Shown here piece by piece: positions 17,281 through 46,552 of a DNA stretch of 64,000 nt (position 1 is the stretch's first letter; every line of letters starts with the position of its first letter). The stretch spans positions 49,787 to 113,786 of the forward strand of contig JAJCYV010000022.1 of NCBI GenBank assembly GCA_029262695.1, in the 5' to 3' direction. Below the pieces are notes generated by a model, which saw only the letters and a program-made list of their open reading frames with translations, made no database searches and was not told where the DNA came from. A program made the position numbers and the translations under genes. Source of the DNA: Chloroflexota bacterium (GTDB lineage: Bacteria; Chloroflexota; Dehalococcoidia; SM23-28-2; RBG-16-64-32).

Positions 17281-17524
17281 CGCTTAGCTGACGAGGCTCG
17301 CCGCCCATATATCAATCCGCGAGTACGGCGAGATCGATGCCCCCGGCTTCTACGCTCTGAACTATCCGCCAATGACGTCGCTGGGGTTCCTGATGCTTCA
17401 CCTGGTCTTCGGCGCAATCGTCGGAGCGCTGTACGGCACCTGGGCTGGATAGCGACAAGGGTGATATGCAGCTGCTTCCTCGATCACCGCGTCTGCTCAA
17501 CCCGCGCTCGTACGAGAAGAAAGG

Positions 17525-35099: not shown

Positions 35100-35438
35100 C
35101 TATGCGGCGCTCTCCACCAGGGCCCCATCGAGCAACTGCAGAAGCTCGCTCTTCGGGCGGAAGCCGACGACTTCGTCGATCGCCTGACCATCCTTGAACA
35201 GGATCAGCGTCGGGATGCTTCGCACGCCGAGATGCATGACTGTATCGACGTTCCCGTCCACGTTGACCTTGACGACTCTGGCGCGCCCTTCGTACTCGCC
35301 GGCCAGCTCCTCGACGAGGGGAGCTACCATGCGGCAGGGCCCGCACCAGGGCGCCCAGAAGTCTACGAGCACCGGTACGTCAGACTCCAGGACGTCTGAC
35401 CCGAAGGTCGCGTCCGTCACTTCATCCGGGTTTACCAT
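35100..35438 (-). CDS. trxA: Thioredoxin
   Basis: [18 protein letters not shown] active site. The 112 aa start is the MVNPDEV Met after an AAGGAGA RBS. Track ORF 35100..35507 is over-extended. Confidence 0.85.
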
Positions 35439-35516
35439 GTTTGATCTCCTTTCGCACCGCTCTCTCATGAGGGCGGGATGGCTCGGCACATGTGGGGGCG
35501 TCAACAAGAATGCTGG

Positions 35517-35699
35517 CTAGGCTGCGAGCTGGACCTGGCCCTCGTCGAAGAGCATGGCGATCGCCTCTGGCTGAACGGTGCGGCTGCACTGGAGGCAGCG
35601 CCATTCCGGCTCGTACTCGCTGAAGTCGACGTAGGCGTCGCCGTTGCAGTGCTGGCACGCCCGGAAGCGGAACTGCCTGTTGTTCTGTGTTGTAGCCAT
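35517..35699 (-). CDS. Small Zn-ribbon protein (Cx2C-x17-Cx2C), hypothetical
   Basis: 60 aa with CQHC...CLQC pairs, lying next to trxA. Confidence 0.35.
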   Translation of the reverse strand: MATTQNNRQFRFRACQHCNGDAYVDFSEYEPEWRCLQCSRTVQPEAIAMLFDEGQVQLAA

Positions 35700-36151
35700 C
35701 TGGGCTGACCTCCTGCTCGCGTTGGTCCGTGTGATGGTTCACACTTTGGCGCTGCGGAATTAACGGGCCATTAACGAGCGATTACGTCCTCATTAAGGTG
35801 ACGGAAGGGCACGAGGCCAAGCGCCCACGCTCGCGTAGATGTTCTGAGGAGTTGCGCAGCGTGGGCTGGTTGATTCGTCGTCCAGGCGAATGCCGGACTC
35901 GCAGCTCTTTCAATGGCACGGAAAGCCCCCGTTTATGGCGCGTTAATCCGCTCCTGCGAGTCTGGGGGCATGAACAAGCACAGGCAGCCCAGCAAAGCCA
36001 AGGAAGGTCCGCGGCCCATCAGGCCGTCGACGCCCGGTAATGCGGGTCCTGACGGGTCTCCCGGGCTCCACGCAATCAGGAGGTGGTACGAACCGCAATC
36101 AGCAAACACAAATCCAAATCGATTCAAGAATCTAAATAGAGGAGGATTGTA

Positions 36152-36550
36152 GTGTCGTACCAACACAGGGTCGACCTAATACCATCCCCACCGATTCAGA
36201 CGCGGGTCTACCCGGTCCTGATCGCAGTGGGGTTTCTAATCGTCCTGGCGGCGCTGGTCATCGGAGTAGCGCTGGCAGCGACGGCATCCGACGTCTTTGA
36301 CAACACCAAGGCAGTCAGGGACGCAGCATTGCCCGGGTCTTCGCTACTGAGCGATCAGAGTGGCCTGGCGGCGGTCCCGCTCTGGGTTCAGCCGTTCACG
36401 TTCCTGGGCATCGGCTTCCTGATAGCGGGGATCTTCACCGTCTTCTGGGGCCTTCTGCGGTCACTGCGCGAGGCGCGAGGCGCGGCCATGCTGGAGGCCG
36501 TCCCGGCGCTGCTGCTGCAGCCGACGGGTGAGCCGAAGGGAGGAGAGTAG
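36152..36550 (+). CDS. Membrane protein, paralog A (single copy of a roughly 120-aa 2-TM module), uncharacterised family
   Basis: GTG start after an AGAGGAGGA RBS. Topology is TM1, a ~45 aa loop containing SDVFDNTKAVRDAA, then TM2 (WVQPFTFLGIGFLIAGIF) and an R-rich tail. It is homologous to each half of the next two genes. Confidence 0.5.
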   Translation: MSYQHRVDLIPSPPIQTRVYPVLIAVGFLIVLAALVIGVALAATASDVFDNTKAVRDAALPGSSLLSDQSGLAAVPLWVQPFTFLGIGFLIAGIFTVFWGLLRSLREARGAAMLEAVPALLLQPTGEPKGGE

Positions 36551-36552
36551 AC

Positions 36553-37290
36553 ATGGCTACTACTTCAGAGACGCTATTCGGTGGCCGCACAGTGCTGGCC
36601 AGGCCGGAAGCGACGACGATGCAGAAGGTGGCCCGCTACATGTGGGTGCCGATGCTGCTCATGGGGCTGATGGTCATCGCCGCGAGCGTGGTAATTGGCA
36701 TCACAAACGCCGCGGCCGCATCCGACTACTTCGGGCTGCCGCAGGCGGTCCGTGGGGCGGCTGACGCTCCCGCAAGCGTGATAGACGACCGGCAGTTCAT
36801 CGAGTCCACAAACGTGTGGCTGCCCGGGTTGCAGCTCCTCGGGATCGGACTGATCCTGTCGGCGATCACGTTCTCGCTGGCGAGCATCCTCGGCGTCTTC
36901 CGCGCCGGCGGCGTTCGCTTGCAGCAGGCGCTCGGCCGTGAGGCGCAGAGCCTGACCCCGCCGATCACAGCCCGGCTGTTCCCGATGCTGATGATGATGG
37001 GGCTCATGGTCCTGATCGTGAACCTCGTCATCGCGGCGATCATCGGCGGCCTCGCCTGGGACGTCTACGGCAACTCGATCGCGGAGATCAACGCCGCGCC
37101 CGAGGGTTCGGCCCTTCTGGACGACCTCGGGACGGTCAACACATACAAGACGTGGCTGGCGCCGCTCCCGTTCATCGGCATCGCGATGATCCTCGTCGGG
37201 ATATCGTTCGCCGTGCACACGATCCTGCAGGTAATCCGGTTCCAGGGCCAGCGCATCCGTGAGCTGGCTCAGGCTGGCGCGGGAAAGTAA
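36553..37290 (+). CDS. Membrane protein, paralog B (internal tandem duplication of the same 2-TM module)
   Basis: Both halves repeat the pattern TM, a SDYF/WDVYGN loop, WLPGLQLLGIGLIL / WLAPLPFIGIAMIL, and a ...RFQGQRIRELAQ tail. It starts 3 bp after paralog A. Confidence 0.5.
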   Translation: MATTSETLFGGRTVLARPEATTMQKVARYMWVPMLLMGLMVIAASVVIGITNAAAASDYFGLPQAVRGAADAPASVIDDRQFIESTNVWLPGLQLLGIGLILSAITFSLASILGVFRAGGVRLQQALGREAQSLTPPITARLFPMLMMMGLMVLIVNLVIAAIIGGLAWDVYGNSIAEINAAPEGSALLDDLGTVNTYKTWLAPLPFIGIAMILVGISFAVHTILQVIRFQGQRIRELAQAGAGK

Positions 37291-37302
37291 GGGAGGCGCA
37301 AG

Positions 37303-38031
37303 ATGACTCAAGCAATAGGTTCTCTACCCAAGACGATAGAGCTTCGCGCTCCCCGTATGACGAAGATGCAGGAGATGGCAAAGCTGATGTGGCTGCCGAT
37401 GTTCGCGATGGGCCTCATGGTGCTGATCGCGAGCCTGGTGATCGGCGGTGTCGAGTCGGTGCTGTCGGCCGACCTGTTCGACCTCGACAAGGCAGCGCGT
37501 GAAGGCGCGAACGCCAGCAGCTCGACCCTCGACAAGCAGCAGTTCATCGAGTCGACGAGGCTGTGGCTGCCGCGATTCCAGCTCCTGGGCATGGGGCTAC
37601 TCTTCGGCGGGATAACGTTCCTGTTGGCGACGATCCTCGGCAACCTGCGGCTGTACGGCGGGCTCGTCCAGGAGAAGTCCGGGCGCAAAGTGCTGGCGCT
37701 GACTCCACCGTGGTCGGCCCAGGTGTTCCCAATCGCCATGATGGCCGGCCTGATGGTGCTGATCGTGTCGCTGGTGATCAGCGTCATCGTCGCATTCACC
37801 GCCGGTGACGTGTACGGGAACCCGCTCTCGACCATCGGTGGAGCGGAGGCCGGGTCCGGGCTGCTGGACGACTTCCAGACGGTGAAGACGTTCGCAGCGT
37901 GGTTGCAGTCGTTCGCTTTCGCGGGGCTGGCGCTGGTGCTTTCGGGCATCGTGCTGGCGCTGTACACGATCGCGCAGGTTCTGCGGTTCCAGCACGAGCG
38001 CATCGCTCAGCTGGCGGAGGGCGCAGAGTAG
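37303..38031 (+). CDS. Membrane protein, paralog C (internal tandem duplication of the same 2-TM module)
   Basis: About 45-50% identical to paralog B along its whole length (LFDLDKAAREGA..., WLPRFQLLGMGLLFGGITF, RFQHERIAQLAEG). Confidence 0.5.
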   Translation: MTQAIGSLPKTIELRAPRMTKMQEMAKLMWLPMFAMGLMVLIASLVIGGVESVLSADLFDLDKAAREGANASSSTLDKQQFIESTRLWLPRFQLLGMGLLFGGITFLLATILGNLRLYGGLVQEKSGRKVLALTPPWSAQVFPIAMMAGLMVLIVSLVISVIVAFTAGDVYGNPLSTIGGAEAGSGLLDDFQTVKTFAAWLQSFAFAGLALVLSGIVLALYTIAQVLRFQHERIAQLAEGAE

Positions 38032-38055
38032 GAGCCCCTCTCTCGCTCTCACCCA

Positions 38056-38094
38056 GACGGCTGGCCCCTCCTAACGAAGGGGCCAGCCGTTTGC
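38056..38094 (+). terminator. Rho-independent terminator
   Basis: 12-bp perfect stem ACGGCTGGCCCC / GGGGCCAGCCGT with a 10-nt loop, followed by TTTGCT. It lies 25 bp after the paralog C stop. Confidence 0.7.
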
Positions 38095-38413
38095 TATGGA
38101 CATACGGATGCGATCGCGACGATGGCCGGCCCGCAGATCGCGAGCGCCGCGACGAATCGAGGCCGTATCCGCTCCGGAGGAGGGGGCAACGCCGATGCGC
38201 CCCGAGGGACGATCCTATATTGTGTAAAGGTCGGACGGATCGATGGCAGCTTCGGCCTCCGGGCGATAACGACGCGAGCTCCGTCGGCGGAAGGCGATTC
38301 GAAGACCTTGAGGACCGTCCCTGAAATCCGGGTGCAACGCCAGGCTCCGACCGTGCACACCACACCCGGCTCCGGACGTTCCCGTGGATCTGCAGAGAAC
38401 AAGAAAGAGGCCA

Positions 38414-39406
38414 ATGGTTTACCAGACTTCTAACCCCTGGACCCTTGAGGGCAAGCAGACGGCCATTCAGAAGGCCGTTAGCGAAATCTACGAGCAGTAC
38501 TTCGCCAAAGGTCCGAGATGGATCGCCAAGCATCTGCCCCAGAGACCGGAAATGCGAGAGCACGGCCCGGCGGTGAGCCCGGAGTCGCGGGAGATACTAC
38601 TCGGGAACTACGGCGTCGAGTCATTCATCGAAGACTACGCGGTGACTGCCATTCGAGCGTCCGGGGACAGCCGCAGCACGCGGCAGATATACACCCAGTG
38701 GGTCTTTGACGAAACACGCCATAGCCAGGCCCTGTGGTATTGCCTCGTTGATTCCGGGTTGTACTCTCAGCGGGAACTGGACGAGTACACGTACGAGTGC
38801 GGCCAGGACACGTGGACGTTCGAGAGGCAGACCGGTCACGAGGCAACGCCGGAGCGAGGCGCCGCGTACGCGATCGCGCAGGAGAGGCAGACGAAGAAGA
38901 ACTACCGGGACATGCAGCGGCGCCTATGGCAAGAATACGGGTCGCCAAAGGACGCAGCCGGGAGGGCCGTCTATCCGGCGATCGCGGGGGTCTGTCAAGC
39001 GCTGGCGACGGACGAAGGCTTTCACGAGGGCGTCTTCAGGAAGATCACAAAGGTGTACCTCAAGTTCTGGCCAGAGAAGGCCCTCCAGGCGATGTGGGAC
39101 GTCTACGAACGCTATCGCATGCCGATGCTGAAGCTCCCGAACGCTGAGGCGTTCGTGAACGCTGTGCTCTCCACCGGCATCGACTCCCCGAGGGCCGTTG
39201 TCCGTGATGTCCTCAGTCCGACGTATGCGGCGATGGGGCTGGAAAGCCGGGCAGCCCTCAAGCGCGCCGCCAGAGAGAGCTGGGACCTGCCCGAGGGGGC
39301 GGTGATCCAGGTGGGCGACGAGCTGTCTCCCGATGTATCCGAGGGAGCGATCCCCTACACGATGAGCCCCAACGGGTCGCTCGTGCCCGTGGCCCCGCCG
39401 GCCTAA
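38414..39406 (+). CDS. Di-iron acyl-ACP desaturase-like protein (ferritin-like, FA_desaturase_2 family)
   Basis: Two E...ExxH di-iron motifs (WVFDETRHSQ and LATDEGFHEGVF) parallel the plant/mycobacterial EENRHG / DEKRHE motifs. About 330 aa, like DesA1/DesA2. The start is ATG 38414 after an AAGAAAGAGG RBS. Track ORF 38384..39406 is 10 codons longer. Confidence 0.55.
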   Translation: MVYQTSNPWTLEGKQTAIQKAVSEIYEQYFAKGPRWIAKHLPQRPEMREHGPAVSPESREILLGNYGVESFIEDYAVTAIRASGDSRSTRQIYTQWVFDETRHSQALWYCLVDSGLYSQRELDEYTYECGQDTWTFERQTGHEATPERGAAYAIAQERQTKKNYRDMQRRLWQEYGSPKDAAGRAVYPAIAGVCQALATDEGFHEGVFRKITKVYLKFWPEKALQAMWDVYERYRMPMLKLPNAEAFVNAVLSTGIDSPRAVVRDVLSPTYAAMGLESRAALKRAARESWDLPEGAVIQVGDELSPDVSEGAIPYTMSPNGSLVPVAPPA

Positions 39407-39435
39407 CGCGCCCCGGCAGGAAGACTCCAACCTCT

Positions 39436-39482
39436 CACCCGGCGCATCTGCGCGGGCCCGGCCGGGGCCGTGCAGATGCGCC
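39436..39482 (+). terminator. Long GC hairpin (13-bp stem CCGGCGCATCTGC / GCAGATGCGCCGG) downstream of the desaturase-like gene. No T-tract follows.
   Basis: Inverted repeat read from the sequence. It is a possible terminator or processing structure. Confidence 0.35.
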
Positions 39483-39571
39483 GGCGAACGGCGCCACAAA
39501 TTGCGCCCGTGGGAACGCCGCGCCTACAATACGCTTCGCATCGACATCTCCCGTCGGACGAAGGACATCGA

Positions 39572-41203
39572 ATGGAACGCTGGCAAACGAACGTCGACCC
39601 CAACTCTGAGAGCTTCCGCGCGAACCGCGAGGCCATGAGCGCGCTGCTCCAGGAAGTCGAGGAGCAACTCGAGCTGGCCCGCGCCGGCGGTGGCGAGCGT
39701 CGCGTCGAGCGACTCCGGGCGCGGGGCAAGATGATGATCCGCGAACGGATCGAACTGCTCCTCGACCGCGACTCGCCGTTCCTCGAGATCAGCGCGCTGG
39801 CTGGCTGGGGTACCGACTTCGCCGTCGGGGGCGGGTTCGTAACGGGCATCGGCGTCGTGTCCGGCGTCGAGTGCATGATCGCCGGCAACGACCCGACCGT
39901 GCTCAGCGGCGCGATGACGCCGATCGTCGGCAAGAAGATCGACCGCTCGCTGGAGGTCTCCCGGCTCAATCGCCTGCCGTACATCCAGTTCGTGGAGTCC
40001 GCCGGCGCCGATTTGCGTCCGCGCGGGGGCGGCTCGCCCGAAGACGAGATGCGCCGCCAGCTCTTCCACTTCGCGGAGAGCGGCCGCTTCTTCCACGACA
40101 TCACGGAGCTATCGGCGATGCGGATCCCGACGATGTCGGTCGTCTTTGGCAGCTCAACGGCCGGCGGCGCCTACCAGCCCGGCATGTCCGATTACAACAT
40201 CTTCATCCGCGGACGGTCCAAGGTGTTCCTGGGCGGCCCGCCTCTGGTGAAGATGGCGACTGGCGAAGACTCCGACGACGAAGAGCTGGGCGGTGCAGAG
40301 ATGCACGCCAGGAAGTCCGGCCTGGCCGACTATCTCGCCGACGACGAAGCCGACGCGCTGCGTATGGCCCGCGGCGTGATAGCGCACCTGAACTGGCGCA
40401 AGCTGGGCCCGGGACCGACGATGCCGCCGGACGAACCGTTGTACGACCGCGAAGACCTCCTCGGCCTGCTGCCGGTCGACCTGCGCACGCCGATGGACAT
40501 CCGCGAGGTGATCGGACGCATCACCGACGGCTCACGCTTCGAGGAGTTCAAGCCGCTCTACGGCCCGACCCTCGTCACGGGCTGGGCTTCGATCCACGGG
40601 TTCCCCGTCGGCATCCTCGGGAACAACGGCGTGCTCTTCCTGGACGAATCACAGAAGGCGGCACAGTTCATCCAGCTCTGCAACCAGATCGACGTGCCGC
40701 TCATCTTCCTGCAGAACATCACAGGCTACATCGTCGGCAAGGTCTACGAGCAAGGCGGCATCGTCAAAGAAGGGTCGAAGATGCTCAACGCGGTCTCGAA
40801 CTCGAAAGTGCCGCACATCTCCGTCATCATCGGCGCCAGCTACGGCGCCGGGAACTACGGAATGAGCGGCCGCGCCTACGACACCCGCTTCATATTCACG
40901 TGGCCGACGGCCAAGATTTCGGTCATGGGGCCGAAGCAGCTCGCCGGCGTCATGTCGATCGTCAGGCGGGCGGCGGCCGCCAGGACGGGGGAAGAGTTCA
41001 ACGAGGCCCAGGACGCGATGATCACGGCTGCGGTCGAGGACTTCACGGAGAAGTCATCGCTCGCGCTTTACGCCACCGGGCGGGTCGTCGACGACGGCAT
41101 CATCGACCCGCGTGACACGCGGACGGTGCTCGGGATGACGCTCTCCGCCTGTCACAACAACGAAGTCAAAGGCGCCGAGGGATACGGCGTCTACAGGATG
41201 TAG
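39572..41203 (+). CDS. Acyl-CoA carboxylase carboxyltransferase (beta) subunit, methylcrotonyl/geranyl-CoA carboxylase type
   Basis: 543 aa. The N-terminal region (MMIRERIELLLD, SPFLEISALAG) and the two crotonase-like CT halves match MccB/AtuC-type beta subunits. ATG 39572 is internal to track ORF 39470..41203. Confidence 0.75.
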   Translation: MERWQTNVDPNSESFRANREAMSALLQEVEEQLELARAGGGERRVERLRARGKMMIRERIELLLDRDSPFLEISALAGWGTDFAVGGGFVTGIGVVSGVECMIAGNDPTVLSGAMTPIVGKKIDRSLEVSRLNRLPYIQFVESAGADLRPRGGGSPEDEMRRQLFHFAESGRFFHDITELSAMRIPTMSVVFGSSTAGGAYQPGMSDYNIFIRGRSKVFLGGPPLVKMATGEDSDDEELGGAEMHARKSGLADYLADDEADALRMARGVIAHLNWRKLGPGPTMPPDEPLYDREDLLGLLPVDLRTPMDIREVIGRITDGSRFEEFKPLYGPTLVTGWASIHGFPVGILGNNGVLFLDESQKAAQFIQLCNQIDVPLIFLQNITGYIVGKVYEQGGIVKEGSKMLNAVSNSKVPHISVIIGASYGAGNYGMSGRAYDTRFIFTWPTAKISVMGPKQLAGVMSIVRRAAAARTGEEFNEAQDAMITAAVEDFTEKSSLALYATGRVVDDGIIDPRDTRTVLGMTLSACHNNEVKGAEGYGVYRM

Positions 41204-41206
41204 CCG

Positions 41207-43192
41207 GTGCCACGAATCTCGAAGCTGCTGATCGCCAATCGCGGCGAGATTGCGCGCCGAATCATGCGCACGGCGCGCGAGATGGGCATCGCCACGGTCG
41301 CCGTGTACGCCGAGCCCGACGCCGACGCCCCCTTCGTCAGCGAAGCGGATGAGGCGGTATCGCTGCGGGGCACGACGAGCCAGGAGACCTACCTCGACAT
41401 CGAGAAAGTCATCGAAGCCGCCCGGCGCACCGGGACCGACGGCGTGCATCCCGGCTACGGATTCCTCGCCGAAAACGCGGACTTCGCACGCGCCGTAGTC
41501 GACGCCGGCCTGACCTGGGTCGGCCCGCGGGCAGAGGCCATCGCCACGATGGGCGACAAGCTCGCCGCCAAGAAGCTCATGACCGAAGCCGCCGTCCCAA
41601 CGCTGCCGGTGGTTGAAGTCGCCCGGAGTGTGACCAAGGCGGTCCGCAAGCGCGCAGCCCAGGTGGGCTACCCACTGCTGGTCAAGGCGGCCAGCGGCGG
41701 CGGCGGCAAAGGCATGCGCATCGTCGAGAACGATGCAGAACTCGCGGACGCGATCGCCGGCGCAAGGCGGGAGGCTGCCGGCGCGTTCGGGGACGACACC
41801 GTGTTCCTGGAGCGCTTCCTGGAGGGAGCCCGTCACATCGAGGTGCAAATCTTCGGTGACCGCCACGGGAACACCGTTCACTGCTTCGAAAGAGAGTGCT
41901 CGATCCAGCGCCGCCACCAGAAGATCATCGAGGAGGCGCCGTCGCCCGCGGTTGACGCCGAGCTTCGACTCCGCCTTGGCGAAGCCGCCGTTGAGGCCGC
42001 CAGGGCAGTCGGCTACGACGGCGCCGGAACTGTCGAGTTCATGCTGGACAAGGACGGCAACTTCTACTTCCTCGAGATGAACACGCGGCTCCAGGTGGAG
42101 CACCCGGTGACTGAGGAGATCACGGGCCTGGACCTGGTCCGCGAGCAGATCAGGGTCGCCGAGGGCGATCCGCTCTCCTTTTGCCAGGACGAGCTGCGGA
42201 TGGACGGTCACGCGATTGAGGCTCGTCTCTACGCCGAGGACCCGGCGAACGGTTTCCTGCCCGCCACGGGCCGCCTGATCGCCTGGATGCCCGACGCGGC
42301 GCGGCCGGCGCGCTTCGAGTCTGGCGTCGAAGCCGGCTCAGAGGTCTCGCCATACTTCGACCCGATGCTCGCCAAGGTCATCGTGCACGCGCGGGACCGC
42401 ACAGAGGCAGCGTCCCGGCTGGCGAACGTCCTTGAGCGGCTGCTGCTGCACGGCATCATCTCCAACCGGGACTTCCTCGTGAACGTACTGCGCCACGACG
42501 CCTTCGTCGCCGGCGATACGACCACGGACTTCATCGAGCGCCACGACCCGGCGCGCGAGCGTGACGTCGGCGAAGAGGAGCTGCGCGCAGCGGCGCTCGC
42601 GGCCGCGCTCGCCTCACAAGAGACGCGACGAGCGGAAGCGCGCGTCCTCGCAACGATCCCCTCCGGATGGCGGAACAACCCGGCCGCGATGCAGCAAGTC
42701 CGCTACAGGCACCGGGAGGAAGAGGTCCTGACCCGGTACCTCGCGAAGGGGGGCGGCCCCTTCGCCTACGACGTCGCCGGCCATACCGGCGAAGCGCGGA
42801 TACTGCGGTCGCAGGACGGCCGGATCGAACTGGAGATCGACGGCGTGCAGCGAACGCTCTCGGTCGTCAGCCGGGGCGCCGCCCACTGGGTGCAGGGCGC
42901 GGCCGGCGAAGTACAGCTGGCCGAACTGCCCCGCTTCCCGGAACGGGAGCGCGAACAAGCGGCGGGAGGCTACCTGGCGCCGATGCCGGGCCGGATCGTG
43001 TCGGTCAACGTCAAGGCGGGCCAGCAGGTGACCGCGGGCGAACTGCTCGTCATCGTCGAGGCGATGAAGATGGAGCACGCGATCACCTGCGCGGAGGGCG
43101 GCACCGTCAAGGAGGTGCGCGTCGCGGCCGAAGAGCAGGTCGAGGCCGGGCACGTGCTGCTGGTAGTCGACACGGGGAAGGACGAGTCATGA
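41207..43192 (+). CDS. Acyl-CoA carboxylase biotin carboxylase + BCCP (alpha) subunit
   Basis: Biotin carboxylase domains (ATP-grasp: GGGGKGMRIV, EMNTRLQVEHPVTE) and a C-terminal biotinyl domain with the EAMKME site. Confidence 0.85.
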   Translation: MPRISKLLIANRGEIARRIMRTAREMGIATVAVYAEPDADAPFVSEADEAVSLRGTTSQETYLDIEKVIEAARRTGTDGVHPGYGFLAENADFARAVVDAGLTWVGPRAEAIATMGDKLAAKKLMTEAAVPTLPVVEVARSVTKAVRKRAAQVGYPLLVKAASGGGGKGMRIVENDAELADAIAGARREAAGAFGDDTVFLERFLEGARHIEVQIFGDRHGNTVHCFERECSIQRRHQKIIEEAPSPAVDAELRLRLGEAAVEAARAVGYDGAGTVEFMLDKDGNFYFLEMNTRLQVEHPVTEEITGLDLVREQIRVAEGDPLSFCQDELRMDGHAIEARLYAEDPANGFLPATGRLIAWMPDAARPARFESGVEAGSEVSPYFDPMLAKVIVHARDRTEAASRLANVLERLLLHGIISNRDFLVNVLRHDAFVAGDTTTDFIERHDPARERDVGEEELRAAALAAALASQETRRAEARVLATIPSGWRNNPAAMQQVRYRHREEEVLTRYLAKGGGPFAYDVAGHTGEARILRSQDGRIELEIDGVQRTLSVVSRGAAHWVQGAAGEVQLAELPRFPEREREQAAGGYLAPMPGRIVSVNVKAGQQVTAGELLVIVEAMKMEHAITCAEGGTVKEVRVAAEEQVEAGHVLLVVDTGKDES

Positions 43193-43998
43193 GCGATGCG
43201 CTGGACGAGATCGTAAACGACCTGGAGGCCGAACAGGCGGCGCTCGCGAAGGTGCTCGAAGGCCTCTCTGAAGCCGATTGGGGTACACAGACCCCCGCCG
43301 AGCGCTGGTCGGTACACGACCAGGTGTCGCACCTCGCCTACTTCGACGAGGCGGCGACGCGCGCGATGCAGGACGGCGACGCCTTTTCGGCCGAAGTGCG
43401 AGAGATGATGAAGGACCCCGGCAATTTCGAAGCCACCACCCTGAAGCGCGGCCGGAGCAGCACAGTCGGCGATCTCTTCGACTGGTGGCGGTCGGCGAGC
43501 TGCGGCCTGATCGCGGCCGCGCGCGAAGTAGACCCCAACGTCCGCGTACCCTGGTACGGCCCCGCCATGAGCCCCGCGTCGTTCATTACCGCGCGCCTGA
43601 TGGAAACCTGGGCGCACGGCCTCGACATCGTCGACGCCGTCGGCGCGGAGCGGCCGGACACGGACCGGCTGCATCACGTGGCGTTCATCGGCGTGCGTGC
43701 GCGCCCGTACAGCTACTCGGTACGGGGAATGCAGGCGCCCAGCACACCCGTCCGCGTCGAACTTACGTCGCCCTCGGGAAAGACCTGGCTACTTGGCGAT
43801 CCGGACGCCAGCGACGTGGTACGCGGAACGGCGACGGACTTCTGCCGCGTGGCAACTCAACGCCGCCATGTCGCTGACACGGACCTTGAGATGCACGGCG
43901 AGGCGGCCGAAGAGTGGATCGGAATCGCGCAGACGTTCGCGGGACCGCCCGGTAGCGGCAGGCAGCCCGGAGAGTTCCCCAAAGAGAAGCAGTCATGA
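43189..43998 (+). CDS. DinB_2 / mycothiol-dependent maleylpyruvate-isomerase-N-terminal-domain family protein (TIGR03084-like)
   Basis: ATGA overlap with the upstream stop. N-terminal WSVHDQVSHLAYFDEAA metal-binding-helix pattern typical of the MDMPI_N/DinB_2 fold. 269 aa. The start is internal to track ORF 42667..43998. Confidence 0.4.
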   Translation: MSDALDEIVNDLEAEQAALAKVLEGLSEADWGTQTPAERWSVHDQVSHLAYFDEAATRAMQDGDAFSAEVREMMKDPGNFEATTLKRGRSSTVGDLFDWWRSASCGLIAAAREVDPNVRVPWYGPAMSPASFITARLMETWAHGLDIVDAVGAERPDTDRLHHVAFIGVRARPYSYSVRGMQAPSTPVRVELTSPSGKTWLLGDPDASDVVRGTATDFCRVATQRRHVADTDLEMHGEAAEEWIGIAQTFAGPPGSGRQPGEFPKEKQS

Positions 43999-44774
43999 GT
44001 GAGGAGTTCGTCCACCTTGAAGTCGCCGGCGGGGTCGCCACCATCACGCTCGACTCGCCATCGAACCGCAATGCGCTCTCACGCGCCCTGATGGGCGGTC
44101 TGGAAGCGAGCCTGGAAGCGGCTCTCAACGACGATGCGGCGCGGCTGATCGTCCTCACGCACACCGGGCCCGTCTTCTGCTCCGGCGCCGACCTGAAAGA
44201 GCTGCGCGGCGGCGGCCCGTCGGGAGGGCCCGCGGGCCCCGGTGGCCTCGTCACGATCCTCAAGACCATCTGGCGTTCGCCCAAGCCGGTGATCGCCCGC
44301 ATCGGCGGGCCAACGCGCGCCGGCGGCATCGGCCTGATCGCAGCCTGCGACATGGCCGTCGCCGTGGAGGACGCGACGTTCGCGTTCAGCGAAGTGCGCA
44401 TCGGCCTCATCCCGGCCATCATCTCGGTGGTTGTGCTGCCCAAGCTGGGCGTGACGAAAACGATGGAGCTCTTCCTCACCGGCGAGACGTTCGACGGAAC
44501 TGAGGCCGCGCGACTCGGGCTCCTCAACGCCGCCGTGCCCGCTGAGCAGCTCGACGAAACGGTGGACCGCTACGTGGCGAGCGTCCTGAAGGGCGCTCCC
44601 GGTGCGCTCTCGGGCTGCAAGCGGCTCGTCCGCGAAGTCCCCGGCATGACGCTGGACGATGCGTTCGCCCAGACGGCGGAGTGGACGGCGGAGTACTTCG
44701 GGTCTGAGGAAGCGATCGAGGGCATGACGGCCTTCGCGCAGAAGCGTCCGCCGCGCTGGGCCAAGGGCAAGTGA
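43995..44774 (+). CDS. Enoyl-CoA hydratase/isomerase (crotonase family)
   Basis: ATITLDSPSNRNAL..., FCSGADLKEL oxyanion region, and the acid-containing GETFDGTEAARLGLLNAAVP helix. Confidence 0.85.
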   Translation: MSEEFVHLEVAGGVATITLDSPSNRNALSRALMGGLEASLEAALNDDAARLIVLTHTGPVFCSGADLKELRGGGPSGGPAGPGGLVTILKTIWRSPKPVIARIGGPTRAGGIGLIAACDMAVAVEDATFAFSEVRIGLIPAIISVVVLPKLGVTKTMELFLTGETFDGTEAARLGLLNAAVPAEQLDETVDRYVASVLKGAPGALSGCKRLVREVPGMTLDDAFAQTAEWTAEYFGSEEAIEGMTAFAQKRPPRWAKGK

Positions 44775-46552
44775 TGGCGGACGCAGCGAAGCCCGTCCTG
44801 CGGGTCGCCAACTGCTCCGGCTTCTACGGGGACCGCCTTTCGGCCGCCCGCGAGATGGTCGAGGGCGGGCCGATCGACTTCCTGACCGGCGACTACCTTG
44901 CGGAGTTGACGCTGCTCATCCTCTGGAAGATGAAGCAGAAGGACGCCGACGGCGGCTACGCGCGGACGTTCCTGAAGCAGATGGAAGAGGTGCTGGGGAC
45001 CTGCCTCGACAGGGGCATCAAGATCGTCACCAACGCCGGCGGGCTCAACCCGGCGGCGCTCGCCGTGCGCATGCGCGCCCTCGCCGACGGTCTCGGACTG
45101 CAGGCGAACATCGCGCACATCGAAGGCGACGACATCCTGGCGAAGCTGCCGGACCTGCAGGCCGGCGGCGAAGAACTGGCCCACCTGGACAGCGGGCAGC
45201 TGCTCGCCGAATCGGGCATCCAGCCGATCGCCGCGAACGCCTACCTCGGCGCCTGGGGCATCGTCGAGGCGCTCAACACCGGCGCCGACGTCGTCATCTG
45301 CCCGCGTGTCACCGACGCGTCCGTCGTCGTCGGGCCGGCCGCCTGGCATTTCGGCTGGGGCAAGTCAGACTGGGACCGGCTCGCCTCTTCGGTCGTCGCG
45401 GGCCACATCCTGGAGTGCGGAGCGCAGGCCACCGGCGGCAACTACTCGTTCTTCCAGGAGGTACCGGGGCTGGAGCATCCCGGCTTCCCAATCGCCGAGA
45501 TGCACGACGACGGTTCGTTCGTCGTGACCAAGCACGAGGGGACAAGCGGCCTCGTCTCCACCGGCACCGTCACCGCCCAGCTGCTCTACGAGATCGGCAG
45601 CGAGCGCTACCTGAACCCGGACGTCGTGGCGCGCTTCGACACGATTCAGCTGGAGCAGGAAGGGCCCGACCGCGTCCGCGTTAGCGGTGTGCGCGGCGAG
45701 CCGGCGCCCGATTCAACGAAGGTCTGCATCAACTACCTCGGCGGCTTCCGCAATACGATGACCTTCGTCCTCACCGGCCTCGACATCGAGGGGAAGGCGA
45801 AGCTGGTGGAGGAGACGCTGTTCGCTGAGCTGGGCGGCAAGGAGCAGTTCGACGCAGTCGACGTGAAGCTCACCCGCTCCGACAAGGAAGACCCGAAGTC
45901 CAACGAGGAAGCCGGCGCCTACCTGCGGGTGACCGTCAAGGACAAGGACGCCCAGAAGGTGGGCCGCGCGTTTTCGGGGAAAGTCGTCGAGATGGCGCTC
46001 GCCAACTATCCGGGGTTCCACATGGCGTCCGGGCTCACTTCGGAGAACGCGTTCGGCGTCTACTGGCCGGCGCTCGTGAGCGCTGACGCCATCGACGAAG
46101 TGGTCGTGACGCACGACGGCTCGCGGATCCCCGTCCCGCCCGTGAAATCGGACGAAAGCGTGACGGTGGAGCCCGCCTCCGCACCCGCCGCCGGGCTGCC
46201 TGCGGGGCCGACCACCGGTGCGCCGCTGGGCGCCATCTTCGGCGCCCGTTCCGGAGACAAGGGCGGCAACGCCAACGTGGGCGTCTGGGCGCGAGACGAC
46301 GCGGCGTACGCCTGGCTCGCGGACTTCCTGACGGTGGAGCGGTTCAAGGAGCTGGTGAGCGAAGCGCGGGAGCTTGAGGTGCGGCGCTATGAGCTGCCGA
46401 ACCTGCGGGCGCTCAACTTCGTCGTCGTCGGCCTGCTCGGCGAAGGCGTCTCCTCCTCGACTCGGCCGGATCCGCAGGCCAAGAGCCTGGGCGAGTACCT
46501 GCGCGCGAAGGTCGTCGACCTGCCTCAGGCGCTACTCGGCGCCGCGTCCTGA
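44771..46552 (+). CDS. Acyclic-terpene-utilisation AtuA-family protein (DUF1446 + C-terminal domain)
   Basis: 593 aa. The N-terminus LRVANCSGFYGDRLSAAREMVEGGPIDFLTGDYLAELTL matches the DUF1446/AtuA pattern. It is coupled to the crotonase gene. Confidence 0.55.
   Translation: MMADAAKPVLRVANCSGFYGDRLSAAREMVEGGPIDFLTGDYLAELTLLILWKMKQKDADGGYARTFLKQMEEVLGTCLDRGIKIVTNAGGLNPAALAVRMRALADGLGLQANIAHIEGDDILAKLPDLQAGGEELAHLDSGQLLAESGIQPIAANAYLGAWGIVEALNTGADVVICPRVTDASVVVGPAAWHFGWGKSDWDRLASSVVAGHILECGAQATGGNYSFFQEVPGLEHPGFPIAEMHDDGSFVVTKHEGTSGLVSTGTVTAQLLYEIGSERYLNPDVVARFDTIQLEQEGPDRVRVSGVRGEPAPDSTKVCINYLGGFRNTMTFVLTGLDIEGKAKLVEETLFAELGGKEQFDAVDVKLTRSDKEDPKSNEEAGAYLRVTVKDKDAQKVGRAFSGKVVEMALANYPGFHMASGLTSENAFGVYWPALVSADAIDEVVVTHDGSRIPVPPVKSDESVTVEPASAPAAGLPAGPTTGAPLGAIFGARSGDKGGNANVGVWARDDAAYAWLADFLTVERFKELVSEARELEVRRYELPNLRALNFVVVGLLGEGVSSSTRPDPQAKSLGEYLRAKVVDLPQALLGAAS

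Follow-up and report, generated by a model that had tools for sequence, protein, structure and literature searches.

The three-gene cassette and its repeated module

The window analysed here is a stretch of 64,000 nucleotides from a Chloroflexota bacterium of the Dehalococcoidia (GenBank assembly GCA_029262695.1, contig JAJCYV010000022.1, positions 49,787 to 113,786 of the forward strand), and this report concerns a cassette of three adjacent membrane-protein genes within it, designated A, B, and C (Table 1). The three genes had been picked out previously from the DNA letters (hereafter the sequence-only reading), and all of them were recovered with the same boundaries in the list of open reading frames (ORFs). 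The three are paralogues whose translation is coupled, and between them they contain 1+2+2 copies of a module of ~115 amino acids (aa) with two transmembrane (TM) segments. The stop codon of A and the ATG of B are separated by 2 nt, the Shine-Dalgarno sequence of B being formed by the last codons of A (AAG-GGA-GGA-GAG-TAG), and the stop codon of B and the ATG of C are separated by 12 nt, with GGGAGG located 6 nt before the ATG as the Shine-Dalgarno sequence of C.

Hydropathy analysis identified two TM segments in A and four each in B and C. B and C were divided into halves, and in pairwise blastp comparisons every one of the resulting five modules matched every other: B_N and C_N were 51% identical and B_C and C_C were 52% identical (E 1e-35 to 1e-40), and the module of A was 31-36% identical to the other four (E 1e-13 to 1e-18). 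Over their full length B and C were 48% identical. The sequence-only reading, which had counted five copies of a two-TM module and had described the second and third genes as internal duplications that are 45-50% identical to each other, was thereby confirmed on both points, and the motifs it had listed (SD[VYL]F...A.R..A, WL.P...LG.G, and the Arg after TM2) are present in the modules. Four positions were invariant in 15 of 15 aligned modules from the window and its relatives, namely one Gly in each TM segment, the Trp that precedes TM2, and the Arg that follows it. A hidden Markov model (HMM) of the single module, with the signature of a Gly in TM1, W-L before TM2, and G.G...ATI(V/L)...LR in TM2, matched A, B_N, B_C, C_N, and C_C with E 1e-38 to 1e-47 (1.4e-38 for gene A), values that are partly circular because the HMM was built including these modules.

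Basic residues were concentrated at both termini and in the linker between modules, and the loops were acidic; this charge distribution indicates a predicted topology with the N-terminus inside and the acidic loops outside. The AlphaFold2 model of B consisted of four long helices (predicted local distance difference test score, pLDDT, 82; predicted template modelling score, pTM, 0.73). Each of the three proteins contains no Cys and a single His, which makes catalysis or electron transfer unlikely. The Met content of B and C was 5% compared with a background of 2.3%, with near-invariant Met positions in TM1 and TM3, and that of A was 0.8%.

Table 1. Coordinates of the cassette, of neighbouring features in the window, and of selected genes in related loci
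Feature	Position	Strand	Description
Gene A	36152..36550	+	132 aa; one two-TM module (~36164-36488) and C-terminal tail; GTG start, GAGGAGG Shine-Dalgarno
Gene B	36553..37290	+	245 aa; two modules, four TM helices; Shine-Dalgarno inside last codons of A
Gene C	37303..38031	+	242 aa; two modules; clade-specific tandem duplicate of B (48-52% identical)
Hairpin after C	38056..38094	+	G+C-rich; 16-bp stem; -38.6 kcal/mol; z -4.3
Gene D	38414..39406	+	Di-iron FA_desaturase_2-like protein; outside cassette
D-headed cluster	38414-46552	+	D, carboxyltransferase, biotin carboxylase, enoyl-CoA hydratase, AtuA
Conserved leader	35905..36151	+	~245 nt, directly 5' of gene A; 78-85% nucleotide identity in 9 syntenic loci
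Zinc-ribbon gene	35517-35699	-	60 aa, CxxC...CxxC; no Pfam match; divergent from cassette
Thioredoxin gene	35100-35507	-	Beyond zinc-ribbon gene
X C-terminal remnant	17306-17449	+	48 aa, 79% identical; just after pyruvate-kinase gene, outside any ORF of >=30 aa
FNT-family genes	L061:5903-6904; L080:6617-7501	same as 1+2 cassette	4 nt (L061) and 98 nt (L080) downstream of cassette; two high-GC loci
Y genes	L089:6413-6859; L090:6426-6872; L091:6400-6843; L093:5433-5879; L097:5510-5968		
Y genes	L092:4767-5291; L096:4877-5401; L094:2214-3197		Forms with C-terminal HHG...CxxC tail
PAC2 genes	L092:7731-8585; L096:7920-8633; L094:432-1160		Next to or near barrel gene

Database searches and extent of the family

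No family matching A, B, or C was present in Pfam (no match at E <= 1) or NCBIfam, and the PADLOC models gave no match at E <= 0.01 for A, B, C, the fused relative P0229, or the context proteins X and Y described below. Searches of the PDB sequences, whether by single proteins or by profiles, returned no match; scans of X, Y, and the fused proteins against Pfam, NCBIfam, and PADLOC gave nothing significant, and a search of the literature on the family or its genomic context found nothing relevant. The placement of the module outside any known family by the sequence-only reading was therefore borne out in Pfam, NCBIfam, PADLOC, and the PDB sequences.

A word-indexed search with B retrieved 149 homologues, all labelled hypothetical and none with a Pfam domain; those with a named source were from metagenome-assembled genomes of Chloroflexota/Dehalococcoidia, and the gene was found in 4 GTDB genomes, all of them Chloroflexota. 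The B protein of the window itself had no entry in the contig index. An exhaustive HMMER search with the single-module profile (E <= 1e-3) recovered only 425 representatives from 1.84 billion cluster representatives. The matching proteins carry 1, 2, 3, or 5 modules, and single-module proteins account for 103 of the top 150. The module family is thus small, has no curated entry, and spans Bacteria (Chloroflexota) and Archaea, including Asgard lineages. Two matches that both look like chimeras of assembly or recombination were not used as evidence: P0110 (253 aa) is B-like, with a last helix and tail that switch to A-like sequence, and P0195 (630 aa) has an exact internal duplication of ~200 residues.

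Conservation of the cassette in related loci

The cassette was compared with 88 related loci (8 + 80; L001-L088). The order A (one module), B (two), C (two) was kept in every complete locus with at least 57% identity to B, that is, in the clade of the window and its nearer relatives, to which C is confined. Divergent loci (34-52% identity to B), which are more numerous and mostly from marine metagenomes, hold two genes only, in a 1+2 arrangement. Virtually all complete related loci have an orthologue of A ahead of the double-module gene. Because the more divergent loci hold only 1+2 modules, the core of the system is A+B, and C is a clade-specific tandem duplicate of B. Both B and C are under purifying selection, each gene keeping 78-90% nucleotide identity across the clade (loci with full-length matches). 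The three genes thus behave as one conserved, co-translated cassette, as would be expected of the uncharacterised membrane complex that the sequence-only reading had suggested.

The genes that follow the cassette vary by clade. They include a Grx-TrxR fusion in three of the closest relatives (L004, L018, L020), the small membrane protein X and then FtsZ in L001, AsnC and a thiolase in L003, ValRS in L008, and a formate/nitrite-type (FNT) channel gene in L061 and L080. The FNT ORF of L061 matched Pfam Form_Nir_trans with E 1.9e-50; FNT channels are pentameric.

Fused five-module relatives

Among the distant matches of the module profile was P0229, a protein of 584 aa that carries five modules in one chain. 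A search with P0229 returned 58 proteins, mostly of 570-650 aa, and hydropathy analysis of representatives identified 10 TM helices, equal to five modules, including in the Thorarchaeota forms of 486-511 aa, which have shorter loops and still ten TM helices. Members with a named source are archaeal (Ca. Hydrothermarchaeaceae and the Asgard lineage Thorarchaeota); the contigs of other members are long and also encode sigma-70-type extracytoplasmic function (ECF) sigma factors, so these members are probably bacterial.

The profile of the window module and the alignment of the fused family, which were built separately, matched in hhalign at 96.7% (E 3.8e-10, 110 columns), and the fused family was also matched by the module profile in hmmsearch (E 8.8e-17). 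By these profile comparisons, the module of the window is homologous to the fused five-module family. No positional orthology of the window modules to M1-M5 of the fused chain was found: the window modules scored best against M2, except for C_N, which slightly preferred M1. The lack of one-to-one correspondence implies that the split and fused forms arose by independent duplications.

A structural model of the fused five-module chain was predicted with high confidence as a barrel of ten long helices in a strict five-fold ring. A Foldseek search of this model against the PDB gave no match (best E 0.06, TM-score <= 0.23). The fold predicted with high confidence for the fused form has a single counterpart among solved structures, a protein designed de novo.

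Partner proteins and genomic context

Additional domains occur on the cytoplasmic side of several relatives, namely a REC domain fused to the module in P0247, a C-terminal PAC2 domain (residues 589-738) following five modules in P0284, and a Cys-rich tail in P0153, and these fusions fit a regulated membrane device. Two proteins recur next to the cassette or the fused gene. X, a Met/His-rich protein of ~157 aa with four TM segments and no Pfam family, adjoins the cassette, in the same orientation, in at least 17 loci of the split type. Y, a soluble, charged, helical protein of ~148 aa, likewise without a Pfam family, is rich in Met at its N-terminus and has helices with a recurring P(E/D)xxR pattern. 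It is encoded just upstream of the fused gene in 8 of 8 loci examined, between whose lineages the barrel proteins are only 29-37% identical; the form in L094 is a tandem duplication. Y is not encoded in the window or in the split-type loci, and its identity with X was rejected on comparison of the two proteins. The PAC2 gene of L092 starts 9 nt after the end of the barrel gene, and the fusion to, and adjacency of, this proteasome-assembly-chaperone-like domain hints at a link to proteostasis.

Thiol-redox or stress genes recur near the cassette in 4 of ~9 clade-level contexts, in both Bacteria and Archaea. In the clade of the window, thioredoxin lies upstream, the Grx-TrxR fusion downstream (L004/L018/L020), and CcdA with a TlpA-like redoxin farther upstream. 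A TrxR-like gene adjoins the cassette in L065, thioredoxin lies within a few kb in L057, L061, and L080, and in L080 an ORF resembling pyridine-nucleotide-disulphide reductases (assigned from its sequence and not by Pfam) adjoins the cassette. Among the five-module loci, the archaeal L091 has DsbA, two AhpC/TSA genes, and then Grx and Pyr_redox_2 directly downstream; L092 and L096 have an operon in the order Y, thioredoxin, barrel, PAC2 and, beside it, genes for a TrxR-type flavoprotein and AsnC; L094 has a thioredoxin fusion, a disulphide-reductase-type flavoprotein, and OsmC; and L093 has Usp, G6PD, and transketolase. The flanking regulators also vary by clade and comprise Crp/FNR, MarR, ECF sigma, AsnC, and two-component types identified with Pfam, and a LysR-like ORF identified from its sequence.

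Proposed assembly and function

The proposed building block is a helical hairpin of ~115 aa in which TM1 would be followed by an extracytoplasmic helical extension and by a TM2 that ends in the invariant Arg. Five such hairpins would close into an alpha-helical barrel, with five helices on the inside and five on the outside. A, B, and C at 1:1:1 (1+2+2 modules) would make up this ring in the window, A:B2 would do so in the two-gene loci, which are commoner, and in the fused family the same ring would be formed by a single 10-TM chain. Five is the only ring size within reach of all three architectures (5x1 fused, 1+2+2, and 1+2x2) if the stoichiometry is simple, which argues for a five-hairpin ring. 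It is from this module count that we infer the co-assembly of A, B, and C into one ring and its stoichiometry. The duplication of B to B + C may then reflect sub-functionalisation of two non-equivalent ring positions.

TM2 was more conserved than TM1 in every module (3.0-3.7 versus 2.4-3.3 bits), and its motif, G.G...ATI(V/L)..(N/Q/G)LR, shows heptad-like spacing. Because of this better conservation and heptad-like motif, TM2 was assigned to the inner ring, which its helices probably form. The predicted lumen is narrow and lined mostly by aliphatic residues, with polar residues forming one ring and Arg another at the cytoplasmic mouth. The pore would be expressed as a self-contained, condition-regulated unit whose architecture would be analogous to that of MscL and CorA. 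Our best guess on function, which is favoured tentatively, is that A, B, and C form a pseudo-fivefold hairpin barrel that acts as a gated pore or valve and is regulated by conditions, its use being most likely under oxidative, thiol, or other stress; the identity of the inner helices, conduction by the barrel, and its physiological role are what we infer.

Several observations weigh against this reading. The modules of the fused chain share only ~18% identity with those of the window in the hhalign alignment, so that the ring of the window is extrapolated from a predicted fused chain to which it has no position-by-position orthology, and the two arrangements need not assemble alike. The 1+2 loci are also compatible with a six-module (A2B2) ring. 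The inner helices and lumen-lining residues were assigned solely from conservation patterns, and the lumen of a five-helix barrel, which to judge from designed barrels would be very narrow, may be plugged or may hold a hydrophobic ligand instead of conducting. The association with thiol-redox genes was seen, by simple count, in only ~4 of ~9 clade-level contexts, and the composition of A, B, and C (no Cys, one His each) indicates that they are not redox-active themselves.

The main rival of the gated pore, somewhat unlikely in our estimation, is that the barrel does not conduct and serves as a membrane platform or anchor that tethers or regulates cytoplasmic partners (thioredoxin, the PAC2-type chaperone, Y, REC) or senses the state of the envelope. 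The cytoplasmic fusions to PAC2, REC, and a Cys-rich tail, the occurrence of soluble Y ahead of the fused gene in each of the eight loci examined, and the Y-thioredoxin-barrel-PAC2 operon of L092 and L096 are in keeping with such a role, as are the aliphatic residues that are conserved at the candidate lumen positions, where side chains may just fill the core of the barrel. A strict five-fold ring of ten long helices that bears conserved rings of polar residues and of Arg would however be elaborate for a mere anchor; moreover, A, B, and C of the window carry no extra domains, and neither Y nor PAC2 occurs in the window or in any split-type locus.

It is less probable still that A, B, and C each assemble separately instead of as a single hetero-oligomer, for example A as A5 homopentamers and B and C as rings of their own or as simple four-helix bundles, the sum of 1+2+2 being five by the coincidence of a recent duplication of B. 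That most loci hold only 1+2 modules, that positional orthology to the fused chain is lacking, and that so many family members have a single module (103 of the top 150) would all agree with separate assembly, and the model of the B monomer is already a self-contained four-helix unit (pTM 0.73). Against this, the order of A then B and their coupling are kept at all sampled divergences, from 93% down to 34% identity to B, both B and C are under purifying selection in the clade (each 78-90% nucleotide identity), and most of the single-module matches are plausibly orthologues of A that adjoin B genes.

A Met-based system for the handling of metals, for example Cu(I), or of oxidants was judged improbable. 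In such a system the Met-rich TM1 of B and C, together with X, would bind or conduct soft metals, or the Met residues would act as a sulfoxide sink repaired via thioredoxin. The enrichment of Met in B and C (5% versus 2.3% background), its near-invariant positions in TM1 and TM3, the strikingly Met/His-rich composition of X (adjoining the cassette in at least 17 loci), the Met-rich N-terminus of Y, and the nearby thioredoxin-system genes would speak for it, whereas A contains only 0.8% Met, most of the sampled fused proteins are not Met-rich (mostly 2.2-3.7% in 12 checked), the clade of the window has no X apart from a 48-aa remnant 19 kb away, and no Msr, Cop, or Cus gene was noticed beside the cassette.

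Comparison with known systems

The nearest structural likeness was to sc-CC-5-24 (PDB 8QKD), a single-chain, parallel, coiled-coil alpha-helical barrel designed de novo (PMC11288890). This protein differs from the present family in that it is designed and soluble, with helices of ~28 residues and 11% sequence identity, whereas the natural helices comprise 40-65 residues and have hydrophobic TM cores; it is also a single chain, and the barrel of the window would be split over three polypeptides. In a search of the PDB and of AlphaFold models, the designers of these barrels found no natural equivalents except E. coli YhiM "and some similar proteins" (PMC11288890). YhiM, which is cited as necessary for the survival of E. 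coli in acid, is a natural single chain with 10 TM helices; its AlphaFold model is described as having five central helices as its core, and it was matched by the right-handed designs sc-CC-6/7/8 and not by the left-handed sc-CC-5 (PMC11288890). The fused family is matched by left-handed sc-CC-5 instead, which would make the two differ in handedness. YhiM (DUF2776, PF10951) is furthermore a protein of 350 aa with short loops. The genes of the window are split 1+2+2; their fused relatives are single chains of 10 TM helices with a five-fold model. Homology to YhiM/DUF2776 was rejected: hhalign of alignments A3 and A2 against a 30-sequence DUF2776 alignment (alignment A5) gave 0.8% and 0.6%, and the Pfam DUF2776 model scored 528 bits for YhiM and nothing for P0229, P0270, P0278, P0317, A, B, or C. 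The best local match to the DUF2776 profile overlays the same TM2-like motif, despite a probability of <1%.

MscL is a homopentameric ring of two-TM hairpins with the N-terminus inside, an extracytoplasmic loop, and a basic cluster after TM2; it has a hydrophobic constriction and a role in stress relief, and its conserved TM1 is the inner helix. A pentameric ring of two-TM subunits is also seen in the model of the fused homologue, and for A+B+C it would follow from the module count. The likeness to MscL is one of working principle only. Where MscL has five identical subunits, the ring here would be built from a 1+2+2 heteromer or from one chain, and TM2 instead of TM1 is the more conserved helix. 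Homology to MscL (PF01741) was rejected, as no Pfam match was obtained at E <= 1 and no MscL chain appeared in the PDB profile search; hhalign of the module profile against MscL of E. coli and M. tuberculosis gave a probability of 0.4%. CorA is likewise a homopentamer, in which C-terminal two-TM hairpins form a five-helix inner ring with polar and basic rings. In contrast to this Mg2+ channel, A, B, and C have no Pfam CorA match, no GMN loop motif, and no large cytoplasmic funnel domain. By profile comparison, the family is thus a protein class without detectable homology to MscL or YhiM/DUF2776.

The description of the three genes as an uncharacterised membrane complex in the sequence-only reading is supported and considerably sharpened by these results. 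If the proposed assembly is right, it would provide a natural counterpart of alpha-helical barrels that designers have regarded as absent from nature. It would also show a single ring arrived at by three routes (fusion of five modules, 1+2+2, and 1+2 with two copies of B) and the passage from homo-oligomer to hetero-oligomer or single chain by duplication and fusion. The stronger claim would be that this family provides the first natural transmembrane alpha-helical barrels of five hairpins to be recognised, and a new class of gated channel with dedicated partners (Y, X, PAC2, thioredoxin), with a fold that lacks any natural precedent in solved structures and resembles only the 2024 de novo design; it is possible but doubtful. 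A family with conserved, uncharacterised partners that recurs beside thioredoxin-system genes points to an uncharted membrane component of stress physiology, and at least three families, those of the module, X, and Y, deserve curated entries.

Downstream hairpin and gene D

The G+C-rich hairpin after C was more stable than all shuffled controls (0 of 200 folded as well) and is a probable transcription stop or insulator. The sequence-only reading had called it a strong terminator; the stable 16-bp hairpin is real, but its U-tail is weak (TTTGCT), for which reason it is omitted by the consensus terminator scan. Gene D probably starts at ATG 38414, with the Shine-Dalgarno sequence AAGAAAGAGG upstream, and not at GTG 38384.

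The description of D as a di-iron desaturase-like protein with DETRH and DEGFHE motifs was upheld, both motifs being present and Pfam FA_desaturase_2 being matched (E 2.3e-10, 40.3 bits versus a gathering cut-off of 22.7). The motifs align with EENRH and DEKRHE of the castor delta-9 desaturase 1AFR, to which D is distantly similar (phmmer E 0.0096), and D is by sequence a distant but valid match to FA_desaturase_2. Downstream of D lie genes for a carboxyltransferase (Carboxyl_trans), a biotin carboxylase of the MCC/GCC type (MCC-alpha-type), an enoyl-CoA hydratase (ECH_1), and AtuA. Since the hairpin and ~320 nt separate C from D, and the carboxylase, hydratase, and AtuA genes follow, D is the first gene of this downstream Atu/Liu-like acyl-CoA carboxylase cluster and an unrelated neighbour of the cassette. 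The cluster looks like one for catabolism of the acyclic-terpene/leucine type, in which a soluble desaturase-like protein is an unusual first gene.

No homologue of D was found by tblastn in the 88 related loci (L001-L088), and the genes annotated with Pfam in the five-module loci L089-L094, L096, and L097 included no FA_desaturase_2. The co-occurrence of the module with FA_desaturase_2 that the sequence-only reading had proposed to examine thus revealed no conserved association in the 88 related or the 8 five-module loci, and with the genes after the cassette varying by clade, the suggested functional link between cassette and D did not stand: the adjacency is not conserved, although the module, as noted above, matches no characterised family. 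A role of A, B, and C as membrane partners of D in lipid modification, which that reading had offered as an example, or in electron donation, is favoured by physical adjacency in this one window only; it is accordingly very improbable and was rejected as contradicted by the comparative data on the 88 loci, by the hairpin and spacer between C and D, by the position of D at the head of the carboxylase/hydratase/AtuA cluster, and by the lack in A, B, and C of Cys, of more than one His each, and of recognised cofactor-binding motifs. A tempting but wrong link by guilt of association to a desaturase is thereby corrected.

Upstream region

The leader directly 5' of gene A was about as conserved as the coding genes (76-90%) in syntenic loci, and no similarity among these loci was found in the distal half of the intergenic region (35700-35904). 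An upstream ORF of 79 codons (35913-36152), whose TAG overlaps the GTG of A, is open in 9 of 10 loci. Variable positions of the leader ORF showed no excess at the third codon position (39/40/29, of 76 each), and this absence of codon periodicity argues against ordinary coding. Covariation was not supported (RNAalifold covariation term +1.21, one compensatory pair), and no match was found in Rfam. The leader at 35905-36151 appears, from its conservation, to be a selected element, either non-coding or an upstream ORF. The sequence-only reading had described an AT-richer leader with ATTAACG repeats: the region is indeed AT-richer, but only slightly (GC 0.58-0.61 versus 0.64-0.67 around it), and the four copies of ATTAACG in the window exceed the 1.4 expected without being significant, since 3 of 100 shuffles reach four. 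Only two of the copies are conserved in relatives.

The divergent zinc-ribbon gene, the thioredoxin gene, and a GAF histidine-kinase gene behind them are kept in the sufficiently long loci of the closest clade (L004, L005, L010, L011, L012, L018, L020, and L055; the kinase was not seen on the short L012). The clade of the window has no X next to the cassette; the C-terminal remnant of X that lies 19 kb away is probably a decayed copy.

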